DNA from: a virus
IMG/VR virus record: IMGVR_UViG_3300045988_075599
Coordinates: 1-64,000 of that record
Strand: one strand, 5' to 3'
DNA length: 64,000 nucleotides
Within the stretch, counting starts at the first letter, position 1, and every line of letters starts with the position of its first letter. Under the pieces are notes generated by a model. It saw nothing but the letters and a program-made list of their open reading frames with translations, had not been told where the DNA came from and did no database searches. This document shows, one piece after another, positions 3,065 through 55,200 of the stretch. A program made the translations under genes and the position numbers.

Positions 3065-4573
3065 TTAGTACCTTTCTGCAAAAATCAAATCAATATCATC
3101 ATTAGTTGCAATGTTACTTACAACGCCATCCACATATTTCATAATAGTAGCGTTGTTCTGACCAACCTTCGCGTCAGTATAGTCACTAGCTTTGGTGAAT
3201 CCTTCGATATCACCAGTCTCCCTATTCTGAACCTCGGTATCTAACCTATCAGACAACGCCATATCGGAAGCCTGTAACTTGTCAACTTGCGTTTTGATGT
3301 TGGCGTTAATCTCATCGTCAGACGCCTTACGAGTATTTGCTTCGCTAGCCAGACTATTGGAGAGTTCGCCAATCTTCTTGGTAACGTTAGCGGCTACGTT
3401 AGCATCATTTCCAAGGGCATCAGCCAATTCCTTCAGGGTATCGAGTGCTTCTGGGGCACCACCAATAAGAGCAGCAACCTTACTATCAGTATACAGTTTA
3501 GAGGTGCTTACACCTTCATTCACTTTAGCAGTAACCTGCTGAGAGGTATCAGCGCCCATTTGAGCAAGGGTAACATCTTTAGTCGTGTTATCAAAGTATA
3601 AGACATGAAGAGCACCCTTAGCTTCGCCAGTAATTTCTTTTACTGGGTTGTCAAGATTGTCTAACTGAGCCTGTAAATTATTGGCGATATTCTTTGCTTC
3701 CGTAATAGCTTTATTAACTTTGATGGCGTCAGACTTAGCAGCCTCCATGTAGTCGTTAGCATTAGTTTCAGATTTCTTTGCCTCTGTCATAGAACCGTGT
3801 GCCTGACTTGCAGAGTCAGCAGCATTAGCTTCTGCCAGTTTAGCTTTGTTGAGAAGAGCAGATGTATCCGCCTTCATCTGTTCCACTTCCTGCTTTGCTT
3901 TATTGATAGCAGTAAAAGTTCCCGCAGCTTCCTGCACTTTGTTTCTACCGTACAAAGCCCAAGAGCGAGAGGATTGTGTCAGTCCAGTAGGAGATTCAAA
4001 GTCTGGCTCTCTATCTGGAGTAGTTTCAGATACCGCCCATGCTTCAGCCTTATTGACACTACGTTCGATATCAACCATCGCATCGTCGTGTGCAGTCTTG
4101 ATTTGTTCAAGAGAGTAGGTACGCACTTTATGAATTTTATCTTCAGCGCCACGTTCCCACTGGTCGATATTGGCTTTAGCCTGTGTCAGCAAAGAATTGA
4201 ATGTACTGGTCATGTACGTCATCTTTTCAGAGACCAGCGTATTGATGGTGTTTACACCAGACGTACTAGCACTCTGTGTATCCTGTAGTGCTTGCTGTGC
4301 CTTCTCCGCGTTTGTCTTTGTGGAGGCTTCGAGTTTCGTTACGTTCGCTTCAGAGGCTTGAATCTTTTTATAGGTAGAATCAATGCCATCTTTAATGGAA
4401 GTAACGTCACCAAGTGCAGCACCAGCGTCCTGCGTCTTACCGTCATCATACGTGATGATGAGGTGGGCTTGGTCGTCTAGTGCTACACTGGAGATACCGA
4501 TACCACGTTCCCCTTTCTGCCCGTAACGCAATGTTACTTTGACAGGAGAACTGGATACAGTTACATGATTCAC
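3065..4573 (-). CDS. tail fibre protein (coiled-coil shaft)
   Basis: 502 aa. GTG start 6 nt after GGAGG, overlapping the upstream stop. Long A/K/E-rich heptad-like stretch. GGAPEALDTLKELADALGND resembles the phage tail-fibre repeat signature. Confidence 0.65.
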   Translation of the reverse strand: MNHVTVSSSPVKVTLRYGQKGERGIGISSVALDDQAHLIITYDDGKTQDAGAALGDVTSIKDGIDSTYKKIQASEANVTKLEASTKTNAEKAQQALQDTQSASTSGVNTINTLVSEKMTYMTSTFNSLLTQAKANIDQWERGAEDKIHKVRTYSLEQIKTAHDDAMVDIERSVNKAEAWAVSETTPDREPDFESPTGLTQSSRSWALYGRNKVQEAAGTFTAINKAKQEVEQMKADTSALLNKAKLAEANAADSASQAHGSMTEAKKSETNANDYMEAAKSDAIKVNKAITEAKNIANNLQAQLDNLDNPVKEITGEAKGALHVLYFDNTTKDVTLAQMGADTSQQVTAKVNEGVSTSKLYTDSKVAALIGGAPEALDTLKELADALGNDANVAANVTKKIGELSNSLASEANTRKASDDEINANIKTQVDKLQASDMALSDRLDTEVQNRETGDIEGFTKASDYTDAKVGQNNATIMKYVDGVVSNIATNDDIDLIFAERY

Positions 4574-4974
4574 ATGCTACCTCCTTGAGAAATACCTGGG
4601 GAAATAAATGCTTTACCGTTGCAGATTCGTTTAACGTCATGTCCGTCGAACATATTAACATCCCAATAAAGCTCTTCCCATTCTTTATAAGAATTACCAC
4701 CAGTATCAATGGAAGCAGTTTCTTCCGCAGTCAGTGATAAATTAACGATACCATTTTTAGGGTCTACGTCTACTTGATGCATCTTCGCGATAACCGTGGT
4801 ATCCTCGGCCGACGCCTTTATACTAGCGTAAAACTTGTAACCACTAATATCAATAGGTGTATCTTCTTCTCCCTCAAGGAGTTCAAACTGAATATCAAAG
4901 TCTGCCCCTTGAGCAATAACGATATCAACTACTGGTACTAGCGGTGTTGCATTATCGCAGTTATGTCTTAACAA
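4570..4974 (-). CDS. hypothetical structural protein
   Basis: 134 aa, TTG start 6 nt after GGAGG, beta-rich. Function unknown. Confidence 0.45.
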   Translation of the reverse strand: MLRHNCDNATPLVPVVDIVIAQGADFDIQFELLEGEEDTPIDISGYKFYASIKASAEDTTVIAKMHQVDVDPKNGIVNLSLTAEETASIDTGGNSYKEWEELYWDVNMFDGHDVKRICNGKAFISPGISQGGSM

Positions 4975-5011: not shown

Positions 5012-5350
5012 CTAAGGTGCACCAGAGCAACCGCCGCATGATGCCGTACAGCCAGTGCTACAAGCTCCACCACAATTATACGAACAGCTACTACATTCAC
5101 CTCCGCAGGAGCCTCCGCATCCACCTACACATGTACCGCCACAGCTGTTGCCACATGTGGAACTACAGTTAGCTGCACACGAGTTCATACAGTTTAGTAT
5201 TTCTTGTTGAGCGTCCTTCAGGTCGTCAATCTCAACCGACAGATACGAATCGTTCTCAAGGAGTTTGCACAGGTCTCCGTACAATGAGTTTGTGATTGGG
5301 TCTCCGTGCTTCTTACTAGAAGCAGACAGAGCTGTATGTTTTAATGGCAT
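5012..5350 (-). CDS. Cys-ladder protein B (RiPP-precursor-like; 112 aa)
   Basis: Track ORF trimmed to the ATG at 5350 (AAGGGG SD). The C-terminal 55 aa carry 15 Cys at CX3C/CX2C spacing and end in CGGCSGAP. The N-terminal region is homologous to 5514..5861. Confidence 0.6.
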   Translation of the reverse strand: MPLKHTALSASSKKHGDPITNSLYGDLCKLLENDSYLSVEIDDLKDAQQEILNCMNSCAANCSSTCGNSCGGTCVGGCGGSCGGECSSCSYNCGGACSTGCTASCGGCSGAP

Positions 5351-5354
5351 TTGT

Positions 5355-5501
5355 CTACCCCTTAATCTGGCTTTGCGCCTTGTGGGCAATCTGATTCATC
5401 GTGTCGATTTGAGATTGCTGTGACTTATCTTTATTTAACAGGTCATTAAGTCTGTCGTATAAACTCTTTTTTACCCTTTCTCCTTGCTTTACTTCATCCA
5501 T
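5355..5501 (-). CDS. small coiled-coil-like protein (48 aa), not in ORF track
   Basis: AAAGGAGGG SD followed by ATG at 5501. Translation: MDEVKQGERVKKSLYDRLNDLLNKDKSQQSQIDTMNQIAHKAQSQIKG. Its stop sits 4 nt before the next ATG. Confidence 0.45.
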   Translation of the reverse strand: MDEVKQGERVKKSLYDRLNDLLNKDKSQQSQIDTMNQIAHKAQSQIKG

Positions 5502-5513
5502 AATTCCCTCCTT

Positions 5514-5861
5514 TTAAGGTGCACCATCGCAACCGCCGCACCCATCGCAACCTCTACAACTATTTCCGCAGCCACCTTGACAACTACCAGTGCAGCTAAC
5601 ACAGCTAGACTTGCACCCACCAGTACAAGATGAACACCCATCGGAACAGGAGCTAGAGCAAGATACGGCACACGAGTTTGCGCAGTCAGATATTCTATCC
5701 GATACATATCTTCTGTTCGCTAACTCCGTGTCAAGTACGCTTTCGTTTGACAATAGGGATTGAAGGTCTGTAAAAATACTAGCTGTGATAAACCCACTAT
5801 CTTTTGTTTCTATTTTGTTTATTAACCCATCTATTTTTAGCTCCCTCCTTCCACAAATCAT
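5514..5861 (-). CDS. Cys-ladder protein A (RiPP-precursor-like; up to 115 aa)
   Basis: 15 Cys between aa 60 and 111 at CX3C/CX2C spacing, ending in CGGCDGAP. The start is uncertain: the ATG at 5861 has no SD, while an in-frame ATA at 5834 follows GGAAGGAGGGAG by 6 nt. Confidence 0.6.
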   Translation of the reverse strand: MICGRRELKIDGLINKIETKDSGFITASIFTDLQSLLSNESVLDTELANRRYVSDRISDCANSCAVSCSSSCSDGCSSCTGGCKSSCVSCTGSCQGGCGNSCRGCDGCGGCDGAP

Positions 5862-6747
5862 AATTAGCTTTTACATAAGAACACAAGGAATCTCCATAGA
5901 TAGCCTTACGAACTATACACTGTATACACACATCATTCATTTCACAGGTGCTGCATTTTTCTTTATCCATCTTTCTTCCTGCATCGAGGTCGGCAATACC
6001 AAAGTTTGCCTCGTGACAGCCATACAGTTTTCCAGTTGGGCTTATCCCTATCCAGCCACACTCACTCGGGGAGCCACAGAACCTTTGCATACAAGCATCG
6101 TTGTTTGTATCGCAAATAAGTTTCTTGTACTTCTCTATAGTATTGCTATCTGCAAGTTCGTCATATTTAAGGAAGTTCCAGTAGATAGATACAGGGAAAC
6201 CCTTGCTGTTTATAAAGTCTATATTCTGTTTTGCTCTGTCCAACAGAAGTTTGTTCTCTATCACGTAAACACAGAACACACTTCTAGCGCCACAGCTTTT
6301 CAGGAACTCGTAGGTATCGTCTGTTAAATATCTAGGGTTCTTCTGTGCATGGTCAAAACTTGCGGCTATAACAAAGTTACAACCGCGGTCTTTCATCCAG
6401 AGAATAAGTTCTCTGCCTTCTTCAGTATTCAGTTTGTGGCAGTTGGTGACGATGTTATATTCTATACTTATACCGTATTCTTCCATCTGGTCGCACAATA
6501 GAACTATCTTCTTTATTAAGTCTGGGTGTAAGAGTGGTTCTCCGCCCTCTATTTCCACAGACAAAGAGTCGTCAAGTATTTGCCTATTGTTTAGGATTGC
6601 ATAAAGGGATTGTAACTGAGAGCCACTTCCGTCCAATCTCTTTGAGATTTCACTATTTATTTGCGTACAATATCTGCAATGGCAGTCACAATCAAATCCA
6701 GTCGCTACCCGAAGACTCTTTATCTTTTTTATTTTATCCTCTTCCAT
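5797..6747 (-). CDS. radical SAM enzyme with SPASM-like C-terminal domain (rSAM-2)
   Basis: CDCHCRYC contains CX3CX2C at aa 20-27. The C-terminus has CGWIGISPTGKLYGC (GX4C) followed by CSTCEMNDVCIQC. Confidence 0.8.
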   Translation of the reverse strand: MEEDKIKKIKSLRVATGFDCDCHCRYCTQINSEISKRLDGSGSQLQSLYAILNNRQILDDSLSVEIEGGEPLLHPDLIKKIVLLCDQMEEYGISIEYNIVTNCHKLNTEEGRELILWMKDRGCNFVIAASFDHAQKNPRYLTDDTYEFLKSCGARSVFCVYVIENKLLLDRAKQNIDFINSKGFPVSIYWNFLKYDELADSNTIEKYKKLICDTNNDACMQRFCGSPSECGWIGISPTGKLYGCHEANFGIADLDAGRKMDKEKCSTCEMNDVCIQCIVRKAIYGDSLCSYVKANYDLWKEGAKNRWVNKQNRNKR

Positions 6748-6979
6748 GTTTTTCTACCGAAGACATTAGATAACATGCGATATTATCCATTGCCGTTTTA
6801 CAACTCTCCCGCGTGTACGGGTCTTTAATTTTATCCATGCTATAGTTTGCCAACTTCAGAAACAAGATTCCAACATTTTCCGTAAGGACTGCGAGGTCTT
6901 TTTCTGATTTGATATTTGCTACATCGTCTTTCTCTAGCACAATGTCATTCTTATCGGTTACACTAATCTTCATTTTCAA
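6734..6979 (-). CDS. hypothetical protein (81 aa)
   Basis: ORF track. Overlaps both neighbours, consistent with a coupled operon. No motif recognised. Confidence 0.45.
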   Translation of the reverse strand: MKMKISVTDKNDIVLEKDDVANIKSEKDLAVLTENVGILFLKLANYSMDKIKDPYTRESCKTAMDNIACYLMSSVEKHGRG

Positions 6980-7619
6980 TAGCCCTTACCCTTTCTTTGA
7001 CAGCTTCAACGGCAGCATTAACCTGTTCGGTTTGCGTTAAAAATTCTTCAATACTAGAACTATCTTCTTCTGAGATAGGTGGCTCAGCATCGTCTTCGTC
7101 CAGAGACATCGCAGCAGCCTGATTGTTTCTGTTAATATAATCATTGAGCAGAATGGATACAATCTTCCGAAGAGATAACAGCTCGTCTCTCACAGATACA
7201 GAACCTTCAATAGCGGCATTAGTCGCCCATGCAGCTCTCTTATCGAGAGACGGTTTGTCTTTGTATCTAAACTCAAAGTTCACCCAATCGGCAGTAAAGT
7301 CATTGAAGTTTTTCGCAATCCAAGGAATCGTGTACTCTGGAACCCCTTCTTTGTTAATCGGCATAAACCTAACGGGGAAGCAGTAGCCTTTTGGATATGG
7401 TTCTTTGCCCATCCTCTTCAGCCAAGCCTCGTAGTCCTCGTGTGTTTCAAAAAACTTACCCCCGTCATACGGGTAAAACACACTAGTGTTATATTTGTAT
7501 CTGTCAAAAACGTGTGGGTCAGAAGATTCAAAGAAGTAGTCTGTAAATAATCCAGGAATATCAGTGCCTCTGTTCATTTTATCTTCTTCGTTCTTGACGC
7601 TCGCAAATACGTAAATCAA
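6963..7619 (-). CDS. hypothetical protein with acidic C-terminus (218 aa)
   Basis: ORF track. TTG start overlaps the rSAM-1 stop; an alternative ATG lies at 7576. No motif recognised. Confidence 0.5.
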   Translation of the reverse strand: MIYVFASVKNEEDKMNRGTDIPGLFTDYFFESSDPHVFDRYKYNTSVFYPYDGGKFFETHEDYEAWLKRMGKEPYPKGYCFPVRFMPINKEGVPEYTIPWIAKNFNDFTADWVNFEFRYKDKPSLDKRAAWATNAAIEGSVSVRDELLSLRKIVSILLNDYINRNNQAAAMSLDEDDAEPPISEEDSSSIEEFLTQTEQVNAAVEAVKERVRAIENED

Positions 7620-8695
7620 AGTTTAACACCTCTCATTCTTTCGTTCCAGTAGTCATAAGCCTTGTATTCCTGCTCGGTCATAATTTCTTCATTACATCCG
7701 TAATCAAACGTACCATTGATGTCATAGTTAGCGGAGTAGCACAGTGGGAGTTTTGTATTACCCATCTGTTTGTTGATTCTAATCTGTCCTTCTCTAAATT
7801 TTCTAAACAATTCTTCATCTACGCCATGGTCAACATCTCCAATAGAGTATTTGTGGTTTGTACTTGTGGCGAACCTGTGGCAAGGATATAGCTTACCATC
7901 CATACCAAGCGTTACCATGAAAGCACCACTACCACAGTAACCGACTTCCATGTTTAGAGACTCTTCTTTGATTGGACGTGGGCGACCGATTGGTCTTACT
8001 TTTGTATATAACTTCCTATGGAAAACAAAGTCAATGACTTTTCTCAGCTGCCTGTAATATTCTTCTGCATCTTCTTTTGTCCAATGTTCTTCATAGATTG
8101 GATTTGCCCACGGCTGAAATCCTAATTGGATTTGGTTAATCAACATATCCCCAAGCATTGGCAACGTGTCTCTGTTCATCGTTCCTTTTACCAAGACCTG
8201 TGCATATCTATGCCTCCACCACTGTAGGTTCTTTAAGATTTCATCATAAGAGCCTTTGCCATCTGGGTGGACTCTATTCATGTCATGTGCTTTCTTACAT
8301 CCATCCAAAGACAATCCAACAGTAATACAAGGATAATCTTCAAGAAACTTCTTTACTTTCGGAATAGAGAATAATGTTCCGTTGGATGTTGTAAAGCACT
8401 GGAACCTGTGTTCTGTAATCCATGGATGTTTAAGTCTTGTCCCGACTTCAACAAACTTATTGATGGCGTGTGCCATCAAGTCCGTTTCCAGTAACGCTTC
8501 TCCACCAATAAAATCCAAGATAATGCTATCAAACTTAGAGTACCTTTTATCAGAATATAAGATATCAATGAACTTATCAATGTTGTCTACAGTATTCTTG
8601 TTGTACTGCTTGTTAGCCTCATAGCAATATTTGCACGCAAGGTTACATTTATCCGTAATAAAAATTGTTGCCGTTAAAGGAATACTTCTTTTCAC
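7616..8695 (-). CDS. radical SAM enzyme, anSME/SPASM-twitch-like peptide-modifying type (rSAM-1)
   Basis: ITDKCNLACKYCYE gives CX3CX2C at aa 17-24. GGEALL-type motif present. C-terminal CGSGAFMVTLGMDGKLYPC gives GX4C. Confidence 0.85.
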   Translation of the reverse strand: MKRSIPLTATIFITDKCNLACKYCYEANKQYNKNTVDNIDKFIDILYSDKRYSKFDSIILDFIGGEALLETDLMAHAINKFVEVGTRLKHPWITEHRFQCFTTSNGTLFSIPKVKKFLEDYPCITVGLSLDGCKKAHDMNRVHPDGKGSYDEILKNLQWWRHRYAQVLVKGTMNRDTLPMLGDMLINQIQLGFQPWANPIYEEHWTKEDAEEYYRQLRKVIDFVFHRKLYTKVRPIGRPRPIKEESLNMEVGYCGSGAFMVTLGMDGKLYPCHRFATSTNHKYSIGDVDHGVDEELFRKFREGQIRINKQMGNTKLPLCYSANYDINGTFDYGCNEEIMTEQEYKAYDYWNERMRGVKL

Positions 8696-10503
8696 TATCT
8701 CACCAGCACTTTCACAAACCCATTGTTCTTCTTTTCAATAACAATCCCGACAGCCTTGTCAGACCAATCTCTTACGGAAATGCCAACACCAGGTTTGCCA
8801 GACGGAACTATATATGAACCAAGGCAAGGGTCATCCAAAACTTTAACAGACACACGCCCAACAAGACATACTGGAATAAACCTCTTCATATTATGCTCTA
8901 CATAGTTTTTTGATGGTTCACCTCCGATTATATGTGCGTAATCACCAGAGACAATACCAGCGATTACTTTATCATCAAGCGTAGCTTTTCTGTACCTACC
9001 AGTGGTAAGGTCTAATGCAACAATATCGCCAACATCAGCGTCATCGCCTCGCTCAAACCACTCTGCGTAGTCGTTATATACAGCGTTAAACACCTTAGCT
9101 CCGACAACATTGCCACTAGCAGAAATACCACCAGTTACCTGAACATCATTCGCGGTAAACAAGTTTGAGTCCAGCGTGTTCGTCTCGAACGACCCTGTTG
9201 TGATGGAGATTGCATTAACTTCACTTGCTGTAATATTTGTTGCAGAGCACTCTGACGTATTTACGGAAGTGGAATCGAGCGTACTGGTAGAAACTTTTTC
9301 TGTGGAAATGTTACCGTCGATAGTAATCTCATGAGTGGTAATCTTTCTTGCAGAAAGATTTTGTGTTGACACATCGTTAGATGTAAGAGTTTTAGAGCAA
9401 ATATTGTTAGCGTGCAAGTCAATACAAGTAGATAGTCCAGAAAATCTATCATTTACAACAGAGATATTTACGGTATCAGACTGCTTAGATTCGCCAAGTA
9501 CATCAAAATACTTGAGGTAAACAGAGAGTGTACTATCCGTTGTATAGTATACGAACTTATCTACAGACGCTCCTACAGAAAACTTCTCTTTGTTGATATA
9601 AATATTTGTACCGTTACCGTACTTTGGAGACTTGAACGACAGTTCAACACAATACCTATCATCGTTTTCATTTTTTGTAACTGTGTAAGTTGGAGCTCCT
9701 GGTGTAGCTAGTTCTGGGAACGAATATGTAGACGAAGATTCAGAAGAGTATTTCTTACTAACACCATAGTTCGCCCCGTAAATAGTACCAGTTCTATTCT
9801 GTGGTACATACAGGTACGAATAGCCTCTGGACTTAACAATTAAGCCAGAGTCAGAACCAAAGTTATTGTCATCATCTCTGATTTCAGTATAGATGTAGTA
9901 TGGACTAGATTGCTGACCCCACTCGATTACAAGTCCATCGGCAGTGGCCGTTGTTGTCAAATACGCAAGTGGAGTTGTTGCTCTAACTTGAATTGGAATA
10001 TACATGACATCGAAAGGAGCTTTGCTTTCGTCAGACCTGTTACCATCATCGGTCACACCAATAACAGAAGCTCTATAAGAATAGCCACTAAGCACATTCT
10101 CGATGGTCAAACTAAAAGCGCCGTTGGCAGATTTGTAAATCTTAGAACCAATTTGGTTCCAGTCTACATTCTGAGAACCTCTAGTTACAGATTGCTGTAA
10201 AGTGACAATCGCGTAACTGTATATACGGGAGCCGTTAAACGTACCTTTATCCCATGTTAGCACAAGATTATACTGGTCGTTGTCTAGCTCATACCTCATA
10301 GAGAAGTTGCCCAACTGGTTACTAATAGTACCAGCAGTTCCTTGAGAGCCGTTACCACCACCACCGCTACCTGTGCCAGCGTATGTTGCGATATAGTCAA
10401 GGGTTTTTCTCACCGCATCGGAAAACTTACGTCCATCGCCCTGGCTATCTGTAGGGATAGATGCGACTAGCTGTGCGGCTTGTTTGTTAAAATCTGTAGC
10501 CAT
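8695..10503 (-). CDS. tail spike / fibre with putative C-terminal intramolecular-chaperone (autoproteolytic) domain
   Basis: 602 aa. Beta-rich, FN3-like N-terminal two thirds. The C-terminal NDYAEWFERGDD...GDIV... resembles the cleavage region of phi29-type appendage and endosialidase chaperone domains, from memory. Confidence 0.6.
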   Translation of the reverse strand: MATDFNKQAAQLVASIPTDSQGDGRKFSDAVRKTLDYIATYAGTGSGGGGNGSQGTAGTISNQLGNFSMRYELDNDQYNLVLTWDKGTFNGSRIYSYAIVTLQQSVTRGSQNVDWNQIGSKIYKSANGAFSLTIENVLSGYSYRASVIGVTDDGNRSDESKAPFDVMYIPIQVRATTPLAYLTTTATADGLVIEWGQQSSPYYIYTEIRDDDNNFGSDSGLIVKSRGYSYLYVPQNRTGTIYGANYGVSKKYSSESSSTYSFPELATPGAPTYTVTKNENDDRYCVELSFKSPKYGNGTNIYINKEKFSVGASVDKFVYYTTDSTLSVYLKYFDVLGESKQSDTVNISVVNDRFSGLSTCIDLHANNICSKTLTSNDVSTQNLSARKITTHEITIDGNISTEKVSTSTLDSTSVNTSECSATNITASEVNAISITTGSFETNTLDSNLFTANDVQVTGGISASGNVVGAKVFNAVYNDYAEWFERGDDADVGDIVALDLTTGRYRKATLDDKVIAGIVSGDYAHIIGGEPSKNYVEHNMKRFIPVCLVGRVSVKVLDDPCLGSYIVPSGKPGVGISVRDWSDKAVGIVIEKKNNGFVKVLVR

Positions 10504-12412: not shown

Positions 12413-13374
12413 TTACGGTGCAACGGTTGGAGTAATAGTCTCCACAACAACTGGTTTCGGATTAACCTTACCAGTCAGGTTCTTAATACGAGCGTTAGCA
12501 TTCGGTGCGGTGCATTCGATAGATGCTACGCCAGTGATTACCTTTTCCTTGTAAGTACCGACTCTCGGCGGTTCTTCAGTATGGAACGGAATAAGGTAGC
12601 CAAGTTTCCAATACTGCGGGTCGAGCAGGTCAACCACATCGTCAGAGTACATACGATGGGCTTCCAGACGAAGAGAACCAAAGTCAGTCTCGATGATTTC
12701 GAGAGAGGTGGTAATACTCTTGTCACCTGCCTGACGAATCGGCAGTGCACCCTGAGTGAAATCAGCGCATCCGCGTTTGTTACGTGCGGACATAATAGCG
12801 ACGGTCGGGTCGCCACCACGCTGCCAAGTCAGCTGCATTGCATCGTTCAGAAGGTCGAACGTAAGGTTGCCCTTAGCGACATCCTTTGCTGCATCAATGC
12901 AGTTCTGGAAGGTGAGGGAAGTCATCGCACTCTCTTCAACCTTACCTTCACCAGAGGAGACACCATGACCATTCGCGTCATACTTGACGGAGTTCATAGC
13001 ACCTTCTGGACTATCGTACAGGTAGAACGTATTAGCGTCCTTAACTGCTACGTAGTAGGCAACGTTTTCTTTACATTCGGTACCACCACGAACAATGAGG
13101 GCATCGCCGTTTACAAAGCCGTGGTCGTTCAGAGTGAACACACCAGCAGCTACGGAAGCACCTTTCAGTTCATCTTCAAGGAAGTACGGGATACCACCGA
13201 AAGTACCAGCAACGTTTTCAGACATCGGGGTTGCAGTGGTGTTGTTGACGATAGCGTATTCAAGGTCTCCTGCGATTTCCTTACCAGCCTTAACGAACTG
13301 GTACGCTACTTCATCACGAACGCCGTACTTCTTGATAGCCTGAGTGATATCAGAGATGTTATCATTTGTGTTAG
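12413..13374 (-). CDS. major capsid protein (HK97-fold-like), exon 2
   Basis: The frame is open up to 13375, upstream of the track ATG, and encodes ...NTNDNISDITQAIKKYGVRDEVAYQFVKAGKEIAGDLEYAIV, which reads as capsid sequence. There is no SD before the ATG at 13225. The C-terminal part reads like an HK97-fold A/P-domain. Same reading phase as exon 1. Confidence 0.7.
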
Positions 13375-14130
13375 CTCATACTTTCATATGAGATCAGACT
13401 ATATTATACTTAATCGGTGTTATCGTATAGTCGTTGGGATTTCATACGCTTTTCACGGTAATTATTTAACCTTTTCTGTTTGCGAACAATATTAAACTTT
13501 AGACCAGATTCTATAAATGACTTTAGGTTCATAGTGAAACTCAGTTGTACTTTGTTTTTGGTTTGTATTTCTCTTGTCTTTCCACACGACACACCAAAGG
13601 ACTGTAGCATCCTTTTTATGTCATATGTCCAAGAGTATGTAGTTCCGTACCCCATCATCCAATTTGTATTACCATTTGGATTGGAACGTTGCGAGACCCA
13701 ACCATCAGAATCAAGTACGCCTTCTAAGAACTCTTTCTTTAACTCCTTGCTCCATTGATACACATAATCTGGGATGTATCTACATCCAGCAGTGTCGTCA
13801 ACGAATACCTTAAATTCTTTAGAACATACTTGAAGGTAGTATTTATTAGTCCCTGCTCTTTGGTGGACTCTCACATCTCTATTGATAAAACATGATAGGT
13901 AATCAGCAACTTTATCAATAAACTCTTTATCAATACATTCAAATGAGTATGCGTAGGTGCTTCCTCTTTTGAAAACACTAGCATCTCCAAAGTAACAACC
14001 AAGTAAATAAGCGTATGTCTTATCTGCGGGTTTCCTATTCATAATACATATCCTTTCTATTTTTACACTTTGGTAAGAAAGACTTTAAGGGTTTCCTGCA
14101 TATGGATAACTTTGAGACGGGCAAACATTT
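13375..14130 (-). mobile_element. putative group I intron carrying a LAGLIDADG homing endonuclease, inserted in the capsid gene
   Basis: Exon-1 end ACGGGU can pair with GCCCGU 8 nt downstream, giving a P1-like helix with a U.G wobble at the junction. A G at 13375 sits just before the point where joining restores the frame (..MHG-S-NTNDN..). Boundaries are a model only. Confidence 0.55.
13410..14042 (-). CDS. LAGLIDADG homing endonuclease (double-motif)
   Basis: 210 aa with motifs YLLGCYFGDASV and FLEGVLDSDGWV. Has its own SD and a different frame from the flanking capsid exons. Confidence 0.8.
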   Translation of the reverse strand: MNRKPADKTYAYLLGCYFGDASVFKRGSTYAYSFECIDKEFIDKVADYLSCFINRDVRVHQRAGTNKYYLQVCSKEFKVFVDDTAGCRYIPDYVYQWSKELKKEFLEGVLDSDGWVSQRSNPNGNTNWMMGYGTTYSWTYDIKRMLQSFGVSCGKTREIQTKNKVQLSFTMNLKSFIESGLKFNIVRKQKRLNNYREKRMKSQRLYDNTD

Positions 14131-14437
14131 ACCCGTGCATGAACTGCTGAACGGTATTGTACATCCAACGTCTCGGCACGGTTTCCGTGGTATCGAAGTT
14201 GATAACTTCAGGATGTTTGTTTACCATTGCCGGACGGAGGGAGTCTCTCAGCCATTCATGTTTGGTGGATACTACAGACGTTTTACCAAACATCTGAGTA
14301 AGTTTAGTTTTATCTGGGTCGAGGTTGGTAATGAAATCGGACATATCTCTAACAGTACCAACGACGTTATAAGAGCGAAGGGCAGAACCTTTATTATGCG
14401 GGGCTGCTGCACCTGTAGCTGGCATACCTACTGCCAT
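14131..14437 (-). CDS. major capsid protein, exon 1
   Basis: MAVGMPATGAAAPHNKG...LTQMFGKTSVVSTKHEWLRDSL.. is a typical capsid N-terminal region. GAGAGG SD. The ORF stop at 14129 is read as intron sequence in the splice model. Confidence 0.7.
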
Positions 14438-15657: not shown

Positions 15658-15733
15658 TGGCACGGGTTGCTGGAATCGAACCAGCGTATTGTAGGGTCAA
15701 AGCCTACCGCCTTCACCGCTTGGCTAAACCCGT
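15658..15733 (-). tRNA. tRNA-Gln: tRNA-Gln (anticodon UUG), CCA encoded
   Basis: Hand fold: acceptor ACGGGUU/AACCCGU, D arm GCC-AAGCGGUGAA-GGC, anticodon arm GUAGG-CUUUGAC-CCUAC, T arm GCUGG-UUCGAUU-CCAGC, discriminator G, CCA. Confidence 0.85.
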
Positions 15734-49290: not shown

Positions 49291-52200
49291 TTAACTCAGC
49301 AAGTTACCAAGTGCTCTTACGTCAGAACGTACAATCTCAGCTTCTTCACTCTTCGATTTAGTTACCATCTTCTCTGCCTGTTCAGCTGTAATCTTTGGCT
49401 TGATGTATTTGTCTACTGTCTTGTGTGCCTGTTCTGGTGTCTTGCCATAGTCTTGCAGTTTCTTGAGATTAGCTTCCGTCGGGTTATTGACGTAAGCAAT
49501 CATAGCATCCTTAGCCTTGTTAGAGTATTCCTGATTCTCATCGGTGATAAATCTATTGATATCTGTGTCGAGTTTATTCTCGATTGGGTTAAAGCCCATG
49601 AAGTTCTTAGCCCTGTCTGCGTTACTCATAGACTGGTATTCCGTCTTAGGCATTAACTTACTGTAAGAATAATACTGACCTCTAGCCGCCTGTAACCATC
49701 TCGATGCCGCTGGTACTGCTTTCAACCAAGCGAACATTAACTGGTCTGTCGTGTACTTGTCGTACAGGATAGCGTCATAGCTTGCACCGACCGCAGAACT
49801 GAAATCAATAGCTGTCCCTAACGACGGGCCACCAAGGTTACGTAAGTCTGTCGGGTCTTTCATGATATCGGAAAGACCTACCTTCTTACTGATATCTACA
49901 CCTAGCACTGGAGCTGCGATACCATAACACAGTGCTTCGCCGATAGCCTGTGGTACTGGGCCTCTTTTACCTACTGCTTTCAGGATAAAAGATTTTATCC
50001 AGTCCTCTGGGTTCGTACCAGTGATTGCCTGAGACATGCCAGAAATCATAGTCATCATCGGGATACCAGAGATAACACCAGAGAACAACATCATTGTTCC
50101 AAGGAATCTCTTGAGCTCTGTACTCTTCTTATTCTTGAGCATCCAACTCATAAAGTCGAAAGTCTGGAACCCGTAAGATGCAAACTGGAACACACACTTA
50201 GCAAGCTGTCCGCCTTTAGCCAAAAGCAGTGGGTCTGTTGCTCTGTTGAAGTTGAAGTTTGTGCGATATACGAAGTCTCTAATCATAAGCATACGCTGCA
50301 TGTTGTACTCTTCTTCACCAAGCTCCGATTTGCTTTCACGGAACTTCTTGTACTTAGGGCTGGTGTCAAGCAGGTGCTGTGCTACCAGTGCCGCAAACAA
50401 TCTACACGAGAGGTCTGCACCTCTGAATCCACCCATGCCTAAGTTAAGAATATTCTTACCAGTCTTTGGCAAGAGGTCGATAACACTATCCCCCTCGTAC
50501 GCGCTACCAGCGTTACCTAACTGAGCAGCCATATCATTGATTGCTATCTCACTGTCTTTACCTGTTAATGTTCCGTACATCTCATCGAATGCTTGTAATT
50601 CAATAGCAGATTTATCTCCTCGTTTCAGCGCCTCTTGGAATGCGTTCTCCCCTTCCTGCTCGAACAGACTCTTACCTTGTTTGGTAAGATACAGGTCAGC
50701 CATTACCTGCTGAATCTCTTTACCGTATGCGCTTACATCAAACTCGTTTTTCAAGATGTCAGACGGCTTATGCGCCTTAGCTAAGATACCTGGCATTTTC
50801 TTCATCGCATAAGCAAACGCGCTTTCTCCCCCTAGTGCATACACGTTAGCTAACTGTGCATACTGTGCGAGTGCTGTACTTACATTGAACATACCGAGTT
50901 TCAGATAGACGTTGACTGCGATACTGTTGTGAAGCAATGCAGGAAGCCACATGTCTGGCAGGTATACACCACATGCGTTCAGGATATTGCGCATACCAGG
51001 AACTGCATAGATAGCGTCAACCACCATGACACTGAGTCTTCTCATGAATCCGTCTACTGGCTTATCTCTACCGTTCATATTATCTACAAGTTCGCACATA
51101 ATATTGTATGGCGAGTAATAAGAATCTCTCTTAGTTCTATCGTAGTTTCTTCCTGTGTACTTGTAGATAGTTTGTGTCATATCTCTATAGAACGGAGTCA
51201 GTGCCTCAACACTATTTACGGTATGTAAGTAATGCTTCAACGAACCGATAACGTCATGGGAATACAGTCCATTATCAGATGTACGTTCACGTGAATAGTT
51301 GGCTGCTAAATACTGTGCACCACTTGCTTTTAAGGCATCGCTAACTTGCCTAAATGTTTGAACTTTGTTTTTGCTTACGCGAATCATCTTAGCTGTGCGA
51401 ATCAAACGTGGCTTATATTTACCGAACTCTTCTTCGTCTTGCTCGTCCATATTACGAAGAGCGTCAATAATTTTCTCAATACTATCTTCGCCTTCCCATT
51501 TCTCACTGGCATTGAATTTCTTACGAATGAACTGCGCCAGTCTATCTGGGATGTCATCAGTAGCGCGATTTTTCCCTTTCTCAATATCTTCATCTGTGAG
51601 TGCCCCTATTGATGGGTCAACGTTGCCAACAATATCTGTACGACCACCGCCCTGTTCTTGCAACCATTCGTCACGTGTCTTTTCTACATACCGTTCGTTT
51701 TTCCCGATAGGATGTTCATTTCTGTATTTAGCTCTATCACGTTTACTTTCAAAAGAACCAATACTGTACGTAATAACCTGATAATACTTACCATCTTTCT
51801 GGATGATGAAACCTGCCTTGACAGATTTTGGATTAACCTGCTCTTCATCAATTTCGTTCCATACTTCTTTCTGAAGGATGTATCTGGAATAATATCTCGG
51901 TGCATATGCATGTAAGAACCCAGTCTCGGTACGATTGATGATGTCGTCGTTCTGCATAGCTCTCTTCTGTTCTCTTGAGTAGGCATTCATCAGTAATGCA
52001 CGGTACAATGCTTGGCTTGCGATAAATCTATCAATGATAGGCTGAGCATAACCAGCGTCCTTCATGGCTTTGCGTCTGAAGCGTTCGCACTCTTTCAATA
52101 CCTGCTTCTGTAATCTAACTTTCATATTGGCTCGACCCTTCACCCCAGTGCCATCTTCGTTAGATGGGTGTGCAATGAACAGGTTTTTGAACTTACCATC

Positions 52201-55200
52201 CTTCATACGTGTATCTGGACATGCATAGAATACTAGCGTACCAGTATCTTCTCTGTACCAGAAGGCTTGGTTCTTGTAGAAATTCCTGCCTTTCTTTTTG
52301 TAGTATGCTTTCATCTTGTCAATCTTGTCACTCATTGTAGCCATTGCCGTAGCTTTATCTGGCTGACTATGGAGAACAAAGAATACGTCATCGGCGTATA
52401 CTTTAAGCATAGCGTTCTTACCAGAAGCAGAACGATTCTTACATCTTTCATCTTTCCCAGCCTCATACGGAAGGTCAAACAGTTCAACAAGGTCTCTACC
52501 TCTATCACTGTTGACATTGATTTCAGTATCAAAATACTGTCTCAGCGCTTTAGTCTGAAGTTTGTCTCCATCAATCGTAAGAAGCTGCTTCAACTGTTTA
52601 ATGTAAGCGTCACTCTTCGCGTTGAGTTCCTGCTGCCAAGCAATAGCCCTCTGTGATTCATCAAAGAGACGGTCAGCGTCTGGCTTTTTGATAAGGTCTT
52701 CTAACCATCGCATGCCTGGTTTCCATGCGAGCTTGATATCCTTAGCGTGGTTAAGTTTACTTGGCGATGTCTGAGTAAACGTTTTGTTGCGTTTGTTCGC
52801 GATAGTATACAGTAACTGCATAAACCAACCCTGTGGAGAGCCAGCATCCTGAGACACATCACGTACAGTGGTGATAGCCCCTTTGCCAGTGCCAACGCTT
52901 GTTTTCTTTGCGCTTTTCTTCTTCTGTTCAACTGTAGCGTGTTGGTTCTTCTGTGTCTCGAAGTGGTGAGTAATGGTTGTATTATCCATAGCAGTAAGCT
53001 CTTGAATAGAATCACGTGCCGCATTGAACAGTTCGTTTCTCATTCTAGCTTTGTCTTTGTTTCTAATCTTGAACGCTGGGTCTCTACTCTGTAATGCGTG
53101 GAGAAGGTTAGTAGATTCATACAACCAAGAAGCCATGAAATTAGATGTCTCACTCTCCGCGATATTACCGCCGTTAGTTAGCTCTTCTGGCACGGTATCC
53201 AGATGGCTGTACGTTTCCGTGACGAGCTGTTTAATCTGAAAGAGTAACGGAAGCTTATGGTCGATAACCTTAGCACCAAAGATAATGCTAGGAAGCATCA
53301 TGTTCATGACCAATGCTTCGTAGTCTCCCTTATCGGAGCTATCGTAGAACAGACCAAGGGACTTAGCACCAAGTTTGAGGGTGTATCTATCTCTACCTGT
53401 CTTCGTTTCATCATAGCCTACCAAGTTTGATTGCGCCCAAATCTTTGCTGTGGTCGGGATGAGCTTGGATACATCTACGAGGTCTGTTATTGCCAGTATC
53501 TGTCTTGCTAACAGACTATCACTCTTGTTCAAAGTTTCAAAAGCAGAAGTAAGTTCATTGCTAATTGCATCACGAATAACTTTCTCAGCAACGCCACGTT
53601 CTTTGCGAGGGACATCTGGAACATCTTCACTTACACGGAGACCGCCGAAACTATCGTAATCTCTATAGGTATCAGACTTCGTTGCCAGTTTATACCTACC
53701 TTCTGCTACATCCACTGCTACCGCTTGGTCGGTGAATGCGTGCATCAGTTCGTGGTACACAGTAGAGCGCTGGGCAAGAGACATCAATCTACCAGTGGAG
53801 TCGGTGTACCCACTGTTATCAGATAACTTATTGCTAATGTATGGGATTACACCAAGTACCTTACTTGCAACATTGACAAACAGCTGATGAGCAAACACGT
53901 TGTCTGGTTCACCTTTCAGCGGTGTTGCAAACTCAGTACCTAAGAACGCTTTGTTCTCTTTGCTAATCTTAAACTCGATTCCTGGTGATATCTCCAGATT
54001 CTGAGACTGTACGTTTGCGAGTTCTTCTATGCTACGTGGCTGTAACTTGTGCAGCTGTGTTCCGACATAGTTCTGAGAATGATAGCGCATTCTAAATGCT
54101 ACTCTCTTGTTAGTCTGAACAGACTCGAATACTTCTGGTGCCGTATGTACACCATGGAGTGCACGATTTAACTGGTCAGCGAAAGTACGAATCTTGTCGA
54201 ACCCATTCAGCCTCTGTGATGCAATGGTTATCAACGAGCACAGGTTAGCAATATCGTTATACGTCAGCGTGTCTTTCTGTGCAAGTCTATAGCTAAACGT
54301 GTGTAACGAGGTAATTAAACCACCACTACCCATTAACTTATCGTTATGTGCCATCATCAAGTAGTTGTAGTGTGGGTCTTCCATGAGGTCGTCAATAGTA
54401 AACGAAATGTCCTTACCGTACTCTTCTTTCAAATCTTTCTTATCGATAGAACCTAAGAACCGTAGCAGGTTAGCGATAGGATTCTCTGTGATATTCACTT
54501 CGTCTTTCGTTGTCCACTTCGTAGAACCAGTGTTGTGAATATCGATGCTGTCAGCTTTGACCTTCTTAATCGGAGAGTTATCTGTAATCGTCAGAGGTTT
54601 TACTCTGTATCCATCTTCTTGGAAATCCATCAGGCCGATGGCACCAAATACTGCTTTTCTGAGGTCGTTATATACCCAAGAGTTTATATATTTGCTCTCT
54701 TCAATCTGCTTATCGCCGTAATTTAATTTCGGAGCGCTACGTACATATACAAACTTGCCCTTTTGGTTTTTAACGCCTAACGAAATCTTGTTGATGGTAT
54801 CACGTAAAGCACTCGGGCCTTCCTTTAAGCCTTTGTTTTTCAGTTTCTTCTGAACTTCGTTTCTGCTCTGCGCCGCAATCTCCAACTGTTCCTGCGTCAT
54901 GAACTTATTAACAGCAGCTTCAATCTTATCCATTATCTGTTTACGGATAATTGCCTGTTTCTTCTTCCTCTTTTTGGCTACCTGCTTGATGTATTCCTCG
55001 ATACCATTGTTCATGATAGCTTCTTTCGGAAGCCCAGTATCAAGAACCATCAGTGCTTTTACGATAACGTTATTAGGGATACCAGAGGCATCCTTTTTGA
55101 AGTAGTCATCAGCCAGCGTATCAATAGCACCAACTACGGTACCAGAAGAAACCAAGTAAGTTACACCATTCTTACCTGTGTTAGTGGAGTATGTTGGATT

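Follow-up and report, generated by a model that had tools for sequence, protein, structure and literature searches.

The ladder genes and their products

A stretch of viral DNA of 64,000 nucleotides (IMG/VR record IMGVR_UViG_3300045988_075599, positions 1 to 64,000; the whole stretch is referred to below as the window) encodes on its minus strand two small proteins, called here Up and Down, which share a cassette with two radical S-adenosylmethionine (rSAM) enzymes. In an original prediction, made from the letters of the DNA and without database searches, Up and Down (there proteins A and B) were described as paralogues with a conserved N-terminal part and a strictly periodic CX3C ladder of 15 Cys, and this description was recovered in full when the open reading frames (ORFs) were read by translating 5012..5389(-) and 5514..5861(-). 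In Down, the 15 Cys run from C54 to C108 at spacings of 4,4,4,4,4,4,4,4,3,4,4,4,4,3, and in Up from C60 to C111 at spacings of 4,4,4,4,3,4,4,3,4,4,4,3,3,3; both proteins end in CGGC(S/D)GAP, and the N-terminal motif S(L/I)(Y/F)xDLxxLLxN(D/E)SxLxxE(I/L) is found in both, such that the two are indeed paralogues with a conserved N-terminal part and a Cys-periodic tail. The residues between the Cys, which had been given as almost only G, S, T, A or N, are mostly of these kinds, with exceptions in each protein (M, V, E and Y in one; V, D, K, Q and R in the other).

In a six-frame translation of the window, Up and Down, with 15 Cys each, are the only sequences with more than five Cys in a ladder of three- to five-residue spacing, and Cys makes up 2.2% of the residues in the window's long ORFs. 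Since the other ORFs of the window hold no ladder of more than five Cys, the 15-Cys ladders are not explained by chance. A DNA tandem repeat was considered as the source of the periodicity and rejected, as Tandem Repeats Finder reported no 12-nt array and only a weak 9-nt repeat of 3.3 copies.

Between Up and Down lies a third ORF of 48 codons, which is matched to the N-domain profile by hhalign with a probability of 96.7% (E 3e-10) and is therefore a ladder-less paralogue; a counterpart of 51-54 aa occupies the same position in 15 related loci. A strong Shine-Dalgarno sequence precedes two of the three genes, namely the 48-aa paralogue and Down, where AAGGGG lies 8 nt ahead of the ATG. From its ATG at 5861, Up has 65 nt in common with rSAM-1 and lacks a Shine-Dalgarno sequence; within the ORF there is a strong GGAAGGAGG, and the orthologue of Up in the related locus L109 begins with a GTG that aligns to Up codon 7. 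The start of Up is thus best taken, from its sequence context, as uncertain by at most about nine codons.

The ladder protein is modelled by AlphaFold2 with a predicted local distance difference test (pLDDT) score of 47, with a long helix at residues 21-61 and an unstructured ladder (pLDDT <40). The earlier suggestion that the regular spacing would line up all the thiols along a single helix face is not supported by this model, in which the helix belongs to the ~55-aa N-domain, and the Gly/Ser-rich composition of the ladder also argues against a helix. The predicted lack of structure fits a tail that would become ordered only after modification or assembly. Compared with the PDB, the N-domain profile gave noise only. 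The profile of the full ladder protein gave a weak match to the coiled coil of influenza HA2 (E 0.004), which was read as coiled-coil composition and not as homology.

Conservation of the cysteine register and selection

While a word-indexed homology search with Up (115 aa) returned no relatives, an exhaustive phmmer search proved necessary, and public data contain a protein of 96% identity to Down along with some 20 relatives; among the phages of INPHARED, there was no match to the cassette by megablast or to the ladder by tblastn. Orthologues of Down were found in 15 loci. Across 27 distinct relatives, the Cys-Cys spacing is 4 in 354 cases and 3 in 45, with no other length, and the number of Cys per ladder ranges from 11 to 19. 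The strict register of Up and Down is therefore a property of the homologues as well, and the lack of register that would have counted against the original prediction is not seen; the count of 15 is not shared. Their C-terminus is usually xGAP (SGH, SGP, RGP and others also occur), and the alignment columns without variation are those of the ladder Cys and of D26, L27, L30 and N33 in the N-domain.

Selection was estimated by pooled Nei-Gojobori comparison. The ratio of non-synonymous to synonymous change (omega) is 0.04 for rSAM-2, 0.09 for rSAM-1, 0.12 for the accessory protein p218 and 0.11 for the ladder N-domains. At the X positions of the ladder it is 0.27-0.44 overall, with 0.09-0.20 in the proximal half and 0.49-0.70 in the distal half, as opposed to 0.04-0.12 in the neighbouring genes. 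At the Cys codons, the proportion of non-synonymous differences (pN) is 0-0.009 and that of synonymous differences (pS) is 0.93-1.3 (in Down, pN 0.0 and pS >0.9), such that synonymous sites are saturated. Because pN is close to 0 at the Cys codons and the N-domain is under purifying selection, the comparative evidence is that the ladder proteins are translated in the minus-strand frame. By the same estimates, selection on the ladder tail is on the Cys and their 4/3 spacing only, the distal half being nearly free to change. Among near-identical phages (loci L003-L008 and L016), which differ at 0-7 sites in 4 kb once recombinant blocks are set aside, most of the changes fall in the final repeats of the upstream ladder gene (positions 9144-9181). 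The distal half of the ladder looks exposed, because of the high omega at its X positions and the clustering there of single-nucleotide differences.

These results also bear on the possibility that the ladders are artefacts, that is, low-complexity frames that are not translated or frames lying opposite the true genes. The opposite strand is open across the ladder too, it was the strand chosen by GenBank/RefSeq in Erwinia phage Huxley, and gene callers miss the first ladder gene in L109 and L110; the Cys codons, however, show no non-synonymous change at saturated synonymous sites, the N-domain is under purifying selection, the genes have the strand and tight spacing of the rest of the operon, with strong Shine-Dalgarno sequences before two of the three, and the conservation of paralogues and orthologues reaches jumbo phages. 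An artefact is therefore scarcely credible. In Huxley (NC_031127; L023, 5140-5931), where the ladder ORFs lie at 5140-5529 and 5539-5931, RefSeq has gp177 and gp176 on the other strand, and in Salmonella phage SPN3US (JN641803; L026, 4091-4904), with ladder ORFs at 4091-4489 and 4503-4904, the annotation omits one of the two and gives gp166 an internal start; between the two phages, the ORFs of the ladder strand are conserved. Since the ladder genes are un- or mis-annotated in both, published virion proteomes could not have scored their products. In the Logan assemblies L109 (9772-10265) and L110, the automatic calls leave a gap of about 490 nt over the small paralogue and the first ladder gene, and it seems that Cys/Gly-rich ladder ORFs are systematically passed over by gene finders.

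The radical-SAM cassette

The ladder genes are part of a cassette in the order 602-aa fibre, rSAM-2, p218, p81, rSAM-1, Up, 48-aa ORF, Down, LtfC-like gene and 502-aa fibre (Table 1), all on the minus strand and with stops and starts that overlap or nearly abut. The stop codon of the 602-aa fibre gene overlaps the start of rSAM-2, and the cassette is, as its sequence reads, translationally coupled to that gene. The two 15-Cys ladders lie 1.8-3.3 kb downstream of rSAM-2 in the same operon, an arrangement kept in 16 loci. These 16 loci, at 65-69% identity, were returned by a scan of IMG/VR with rSAM-2 (359 aa), and the ladder pair is present wherever the locus is long enough; the order fibre C-terminus, rSAM-2, p218, p81, rSAM-1 and ladders is the same in 16/16 of these relatives and in the closer L109 and L110, which have SU10-type capsid genes as well. 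A promoter scan of the window gave results similar to those for shuffled sequence, and a terminator scan gave no cassette-specific signal.

Table 1. Features of the window discussed in the text, in order of position.
Feature	Position	Strand	Description
Tail-fibre protein	3065..4573	-	502 aa; many tail-fibre PHROG matches; motif APEALDTLKELADALGND
LtfC-like beta-sandwich protein	4570..4974	-	Pfam PF23926 E 3e-7; phrog_1084 2e-23; phrog_3304 1e-9
Ladder protein Down (protein B)	5012..5350	-	112 aa, ATG 5350; helical N-domain ~1-53; 15-Cys ladder, end CSGAP
Ladder-less N-domain paralogue	5355..5501	-	48 aa, between Up and Down; AAGGAGG before ATG
Ladder protein Up (protein A)	5514..5861	-	115 aa, ATG 5861; N-domain and 15-Cys ladder, end CDGAP
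rSAM-1	5797..6747	-	316 aa; divergent radical-SAM, CX3CX2C and complete 7-Cys SPASM-type motif
p81	6734..6979	-	Small conserved accessory protein
p218	6963..7619	-	TTG start 'MIYV...'; compact N-domain, long acidic helical tail
rSAM-2	7616..8695	-	359 aa; thioether-maturase-like radical-SAM, truncated SPASM
Tail-fibre-like protein	8695..10503	-	602 aa; C-terminal ~150 aa Peptidase_G2/IMC-like, Pfam PF11962 E 3e-5
SU10-type major capsid gene, split	12413-14437	-	102-aa piece 14129..14437; 270-aa piece 12413..13225
LAGLIDADG-type homing-endonuclease ORF	13410..14042		Between the capsid pieces
tRNA-Gln	15658-15733	-	Anticodon TTG
Large ORF	49291-61344	-	4017 aa, single ORF

The best NCBIfam family for rSAM-2 is TIGR04115 (200.2 bits, E 6.6e-59, under the curated cut-off of 350), followed by PapB NF047865 (161 bits), with TIGR03906 also among the matches. 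Its best PDB match is CteB (5WGG, E 4e-20), and because the alignment begins at CteB residue 94, rSAM-2 lacks a fused RiPP recognition element (RRE; RiPP, a peptide made on the ribosome and modified after translation). The CX3CX2C Cys of rSAM-2 (C17, C21 and C24) are invariant in nine homologues and in a wider alignment. Of the SPASM motif (in full, CX9-15GX4C ... CX2CX5CX2-3C ... C), the first hairpin C254...C272 is kept, while a deletion of 10 residues (~300-320) takes out CX2CX5C, part of the motif for the second auxiliary cluster, and C319 remains; this CX2CX5C motif is lost in the clade of the window rSAM-2 and retained in L024, L025, Huxley and SPN3US. For rSAM-1, weak rSAM matches were found in NCBIfam, Pfam and PHROG, along with a match to CteB 5WGG at E 2e-5; its conserved Cys are at 20, 22, 24, 27, 85, 230, 244, 265, 268, 274, 277 and 289, and hhalign against a TIGR04119-type profile gave 23%, over the SPASM hairpin only. 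The complete SPASM of rSAM-1, as opposed to the truncated one of rSAM-2, may mean that the two enzymes share out the work between them. Both enzymes match phrog_1802, a radical SAM domain protein family (E 1e-36 and 1e-16), and both ladder proteins match phrog_6085, a family of unknown function, at E ~5e-5, in Up over the ladder (E 6e-5); the two PHROG families carry no functional annotation in that resource and are not linked to each other there.

The two accessory proteins are less easily placed. For p218, 15 homologues were found, all within this phage group; the AlphaFold2 model has a pLDDT of 67 overall and of ~85 for residues 25-125, while Pfam, NCBIfam and PHROG gave no match, the best of a PDB profile search did not improve on E=1, and Foldseek with the model returned no hit below E=1 from the PDB or BFVD. 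The p81 protein is conserved in related loci and is of RRE size, with no sequence match to any family in Pfam, NCBIfam, PHROG or PDB. Its assignment as a TIGR04116-type protein was tried and dropped at an hhalign probability of 0.3%. In BLAST comparisons, the accessory proteins of the window have no homology to those of Huxley and SPN3US or, L109 excepted, to those of the other viral ladder loci.

Pairing of ladders and enzymes in viruses and bacteria

The pairing of ladder proteins with this branch of rSAM enzymes extends well beyond the window. In a profile scan of IMG/VR, CX3C-ladder proteins were found in 70 of 76 further viral loci with relatives of rSAM-2, and these proteins have 7-92 Cys and a length of ~40-813 aa. 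A scan of GTDB (one genome per species) with a single protein found nothing, and a profile scan was required; this gave 80 loci, 52 of which have a ladder ORF within 6 kb. Essentially all of the GTDB loci at an identity of at least 27% (L029-L082) have a ladder, as opposed to the more distant loci, which are without. Three types can be told apart among the bacterial ladders. Some are short peptides from clostridia (55-100 aa), others are proteins of 83-272 aa from Bacteroidales that have the twin-arginine translocation (Tat) signal SRREFFKKAAK and are encoded directly upstream of the rSAM gene, and the third type is made up of prophage-type proteins of 160-670 aa. Among relatives of rSAM-2, TIGR04115 scores are 630 bits in L024, 458 in L029, 440 in L035 and 383 in L046, such that the prophage loci L035 and L046 pass the cut-off that the window enzyme does not reach.

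The family to which rSAM-2 is closest belongs to a system that is known in NCBIfam/TIGRFAMs as CXXX-repeat, comprising the maturase TIGR04115, the targets TIGR04114, TIGR04117 and TIGR04118, the second maturase TIGR04119 and the small protein TIGR04116, along with Pfam PF27846 (tSAM_targ_Cxxx_rpt), and that is defined by bioinformatics only. The window resembles this system in having a target with Cys at every fourth residue for an rSAM enzyme of the same branch, and in having two enzymes, one with a SPASM motif. It differs in that homologues of TIGR04116 and TIGR04119 and a Tat signal are absent (there is no RRxFF motif), in the new N-domain and ladder-less paralogue, and in its position within a tail-fibre block. 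Against the target families, whose cut-offs are 20 bits (TIGR04114), 50 bits (TIGR04117) and 35 bits (TIGR04118), Down has no match at E<=10 and Up reaches 7.2 bits on TIGR04114. A canonical operon is seen in L024, with a Tat-signal target, TIGR04115 at 630 bits, TIGR04119 at 235 bits, TIGR04116 at 105 bits, TatA and TatC. This entry (GenBank MT837480, 'Bacteriophage sp.', 6.8 kb) resembles a chromosomal CXXX operon of Bacteroidales, with no phage genes visible.

The original prediction had proposed that the ladder might be fed to an enzyme, and this has held up well, as TIGR04115 is by name a 'CXXX-repeat target' family and co-occurrence is seen in 70/76 viral and 52/80 bacterial loci. Because of the affinity to TIGR04115, PapB and CteB, the conserved gene order, and the co-occurrence in both viruses and bacteria, Up and Down are very probably substrates of the neighbouring rSAM enzymes.

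The same pairing counts against a role in metal binding, in which the ladder would chelate Zn, Cu or Fe-S clusters in the manner of a metallothionein or copper-storage protein. It would then act as a store of metal, as a redox buffer or as a fibre stabilised by metal, while the rSAM enzymes worked on something else or helped to load the metal. The extreme density of Cys and the conservation of Cys alone would suit such a role, as would the Tat signal of the Bacteroidales proteins, which fits export of a cofactor-loaded protein. However, the near-universal, tight pairing with a thioether-type rSAM maturase would be left unexplained, NCBIfam and Pfam scans of the cassette showed no genes for metal handling, and a uniform CX3C spacing with Gly/Ser fillers corresponds to no known cluster-binding or metallothionein motif. 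Metal binding as the function of the ladder, in any of these forms, is thus quite improbable.

Two other kinds of Cys-rich protein were also seen. One, of 1800 aa and recovered by the exhaustive protein search (L021, 809-6220, P0011, together with P0016), has Listeria-Bacteroides (Flg_new) repeats and an uninterrupted CX3C ladder of ~600 residues with 157 Cys; there is no rSAM gene on its 9.5-kb contig. The other, of 361-369 aa with 77-80 Cys, was found on phage contigs of 58-164 kb (L017-L020, ~7062-8168) and has a CxCxCxxx register (CTCNCNYS repeats). It adjoins three rSAM genes and is a further type of phage-encoded rSAM target with periodic Cys.

Association with tail-fibre genes

In the window, the cassette lies between fibre-like genes on the same strand, with the 602-aa protein on one side and the LtfC-like and 502-aa proteins on the other; the LtfC-like gene, of a family annotated for assembly of L-shaped tail fibres, is directly downstream of the ladder genes. 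The domain at the C-terminus of the 602-aa protein, which resembles the autoproteolytic Peptidase_G2/IMC (intramolecular chaperone) domain, is immediately upstream of the cassette in L001-L016, and the same domain (~456-601) forms the 3' gene end upstream of a ladder or rSAM gene in 13 otherwise unrelated loci, in most of which it is directly adjacent to that gene. Baseplate-wedge and tail-fibre genes precede the cassette in the prophages L046 and L048. The jumbo phages SPN3US and Huxley have two ladders of ~130 aa, a stub paralogue, two rSAM genes and accessory genes beside virion structural genes. A survey of the two nearest same-strand genes on each side of 47 non-redundant viral loci (129 proteins) gave the same picture, as the named families among the 25 most-matched PHROGs are tail fibre, tail, baseplate, collagen-like minor tail and virion structural proteins, the sole other named family being a second rSAM.

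In several relatives the ladder is part of a larger protein. On a 284-kb viral contig (L137), a protein of 437 aa matches tail-fibre PHROGs over residues 10-300 (E 1e-31) and has a ladder at 342-430 (phrog_6085), and it has the fibre motif APxxLDTLxELAxALGND in common with the 502-aa fibre of the window; larger viral ladder proteins match phrog_6085 down to E 1e-23. In L130 (2734-5151) and L174 (1568-4006), a ladder of 41-46 Cys is fused to two ALK_LTK-type glycine-rich domains (PF12810, E 1e-97). In L120 (2702-3760) and in P0009 / L022 (682-1545), it is fused to a C-terminal Hint autoprocessing domain, which suggests that the C-terminus of the ladder can be released or activated as a thioester. 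A link to the hairs of the 'hairy Myoviridae' was considered and dropped, since all that PMC6143709 gives is the listing of an rSAM gene for phages AD1 and Y3.

Structural surroundings of this kind would also be expected of a ladder that acts as a disulfide polymer, in which intra- or intermolecular disulfides toughen the virion after its release into an oxidising environment and the rSAM enzymes play a minor part. There is a eukaryotic parallel in the cysteine-rich domains (CRDs) of the minicollagens of cnidarian nematocysts, where the pattern CX3CX3CX3CX3CC matches the spacing of the ladder and supports a tough extracellular structure, although these have six Cys per domain, joined by disulfides, and no rSAM is involved. 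The hosts are probably gut anaerobes (the samples are of faecal or rumen type, and the relatives are from Clostridia and Bacteroidales), a setting in which disulfides are disfavoured, and two dedicated rSAM enzymes under strong purifying selection (omega 0.04-0.09) would have no explanation. A disulfide polymer is on these grounds very improbable.

Proposed chemistry and fate of the ladder proteins

By analogy with CteB, PapB and QhpD, thioether formation would be the most likely reaction, although the odds that it is the chemistry in use are no better than even. The comparison with PapB/PapA (freyrasin, a ranthipeptide) and with CteB/SCIFF rests on the alignment of rSAM-2, which spans the rSAM core together with the first hairpin of SPASM, and PapA too has repeated motifs of the CX3 type. 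In contrast to those systems, the residue at i+4 in the window is Cys, there is no RRE in rSAM-2, and the substrates have 110 aa and 15 Cys as opposed to ~45 aa and six Cys. PapB requires Asp or Glu at i+4, according to the rule Cys-X3-Asp/Glu. Since 352 of 399 repeats (88%) have no Asp or Glu, and 17 are all-Gly, this rule cannot apply uniformly to the ladders, and an acceptor at C-alpha (sactionine-type), or another Cys-directed chemistry such as anSME-like oxidation, would be needed.

In the proposed scheme, rSAM-2, as an enzyme of CteB/PapB/TIGR04115 type, would act with rSAM-1, p218 and p81 on the disordered, Gly/Ser-rich ladder and make of it a row of small rings, each closed by a covalent bond from a Cys sulfur to a carbon of a nearby residue. 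The product would not be cleaved from a leader or exported, and would remain a protein. Its N-domain would probably form a coiled coil, perhaps as a heterotrimer of the three paralogues, and assemble with or onto the tail-fibre apparatus, while the stapled ladder would form a stiff rod or tip, stable to proteases and to shifts in redox state, with the fast-evolving distal inter-Cys residues facing outside.

There is precedent for a product of this kind in QhpC, where the rSAM-SPASM enzyme QhpD puts several Cys thioethers in a small protein that stays a structural subunit (PMC10114670), and thus for an rSAM-stapled protein that is kept as a subunit of a larger complex. QhpC differs in having three thioethers, all to Asp/Glu, together with a quinone cofactor, and it has neither a periodic ladder nor a viral context. 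In the Bacteroidales relatives, ladder proteins with Tat signals are encoded with their own TatA and TatC, and the Tat pathway points to export in a folded state. The glycine-rich receptor-binding tips of phage fibres (gp38 type, with a polyglycine-II sandwich related to the ALK/LTK glycine-rich domain) and the IMC domains at the C-terminus of fibres offer an analogy only, in that a scaffold of small residues bears variable distal residues; the ladder differs from such tips in its period of 4, its obligatory Cys and its rSAM dependence, and no polyglycine-II motif was found in the window proteins.

The original prediction had likened Up and Down to leader-plus-core RiPP precursors, with a docking domain for the tail as the other option for the N-terminal part. 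As a classical RiPP, the N-domain would be a leader, the cross-linked Cys core would be cleaved and released at lysis as a bioactive peptide (antimicrobial, signalling or anti-competitor), and the position among tail genes would be incidental. Much about the proteins themselves would suit this: the N-terminal part is conserved (omega 0.11) and the core is variable, the rSAM enzyme is of the CteB/PapB/SCIFF maturase superfamily, the clostridial relatives are peptides of 55-100 aa with leaders of ~20-30 aa, and AlphaFold2 leaves the core disordered, as a RiPP core peptide would be. The surroundings suit it less. Scans of NCBIfam, Pfam, PHROG and PDB found no peptidase, transporter or RRE in the cassette (a host protease could be used), and no cleavage motif of the double-glycine or GG/GA type was seen before the ladder. 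A 'leader-only' paralogue without a ladder is conserved, ladders occur on proteins of 160-1800 aa and are fused in relatives to tail fibres, to ALK_LTK-type glycine-rich domains, to Hint domains and within 1800-aa proteins, and the tail-fibre neighbourhood persists across unrelated phages. A cleaved peptide of this type is accordingly unlikely, and of the two options for the N-terminal part, docking to the tail is favoured by the tail-fibre context in several unrelated phage lineages.

Because of the ladder-less paralogue, the lack of a protease or exporter, the large structural fusions and the tail-fibre context, a virion or fibre protein is likelier than a cleaved peptide, and Up and Down are most plausibly rSAM-matured proteins of the tail-fibre module that would be part of the host-attachment apparatus rather than a secreted antibiotic peptide (rough probability 0.55). 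A more specific form of this reading, in which the phage rSAM enzymes staple the Cys ladder into a polycyclic rod or tip of the fibre, with the coiled coil of the paralogues as anchor and the inter-Cys residues touching the host, is put forward tentatively and is on balance doubtful.

Several observations weigh against placing the ladder proteins in the attachment apparatus. Up and Down are free-standing and small in the window, such that their attachment to a fibre is drawn from gene context, and the N-domain motif was found in no other window protein, which leaves no docking partner to name. The AlphaFold2 model of the ladder is not confident, and p218 and p81 give no functional clue. As rSAM-2 is below the TIGR04115 cut-off and has lost three SPASM Cys, the reaction it catalyses may not be the one of its relatives. 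With omega below 1 throughout, the fast change of the distal half may reflect relaxed constraint and not diversifying selection. Tail-fibre blocks are also frequent landing sites of accessory 'moron' genes, and no paper on either this family or phage fibre proteins modified by rSAM enzymes was found in the full-text literature.

Significance

The pairing of target and maturase is already catalogued (TIGR04114-04119, PF27846, phrog_6085 and phrog_1802), and no experimental work on it was found in the full-text literature. What is new here is an enzyme and target below threshold, without the canonical partners and with a new N-domain, and a large, unremarked population of such systems in phage tail modules. 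A large share of the CXXX-repeat rSAM family lives in phages and is tied there to tail-fibre genes, and since the ladder system is present in cultured phages amenable to genetics (SPN3US of Salmonella and the Machinavirus group of Erwinia), two questions become testable, namely what rSAM chemistry takes place on a ladder of 15 to 150 Cys and whether radical chemistry hardens or diversifies host-recognition organelles. If the structural reading is true, virion biology would gain a new type of covalent cross-link, and display or engineering a scaffold that is modular and hyper-stable. If the stapled fibre is real, it would represent a class of virion proteins cross-linked by enzymes, and the whole CXXX-repeat family, including its Tat-exported bacterial members, would consist of structural or surface proteins and not of antibiotics. 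The gene calls of reference phage genomes are corrected as well.

Other features of the window

Three further features of the window, with positions in Table 1, lie outside the cassette. The SU10-type major capsid gene is split into two pieces, and the ~900 nt between them hold a LAGLIDADG-type homing-endonuclease ORF; no intron model in Rfam reached the gathering score in the split capsid region. The capsid gene of L109 has the same split, with a gap of 370 nt and no endonuclease. A single tRNA-Gln gene lies between a scaffold-like gene of 400 aa and the genes upstream, and the window also has a single ORF of 4017 aa, which is unusually large for a phage of such apparent size.

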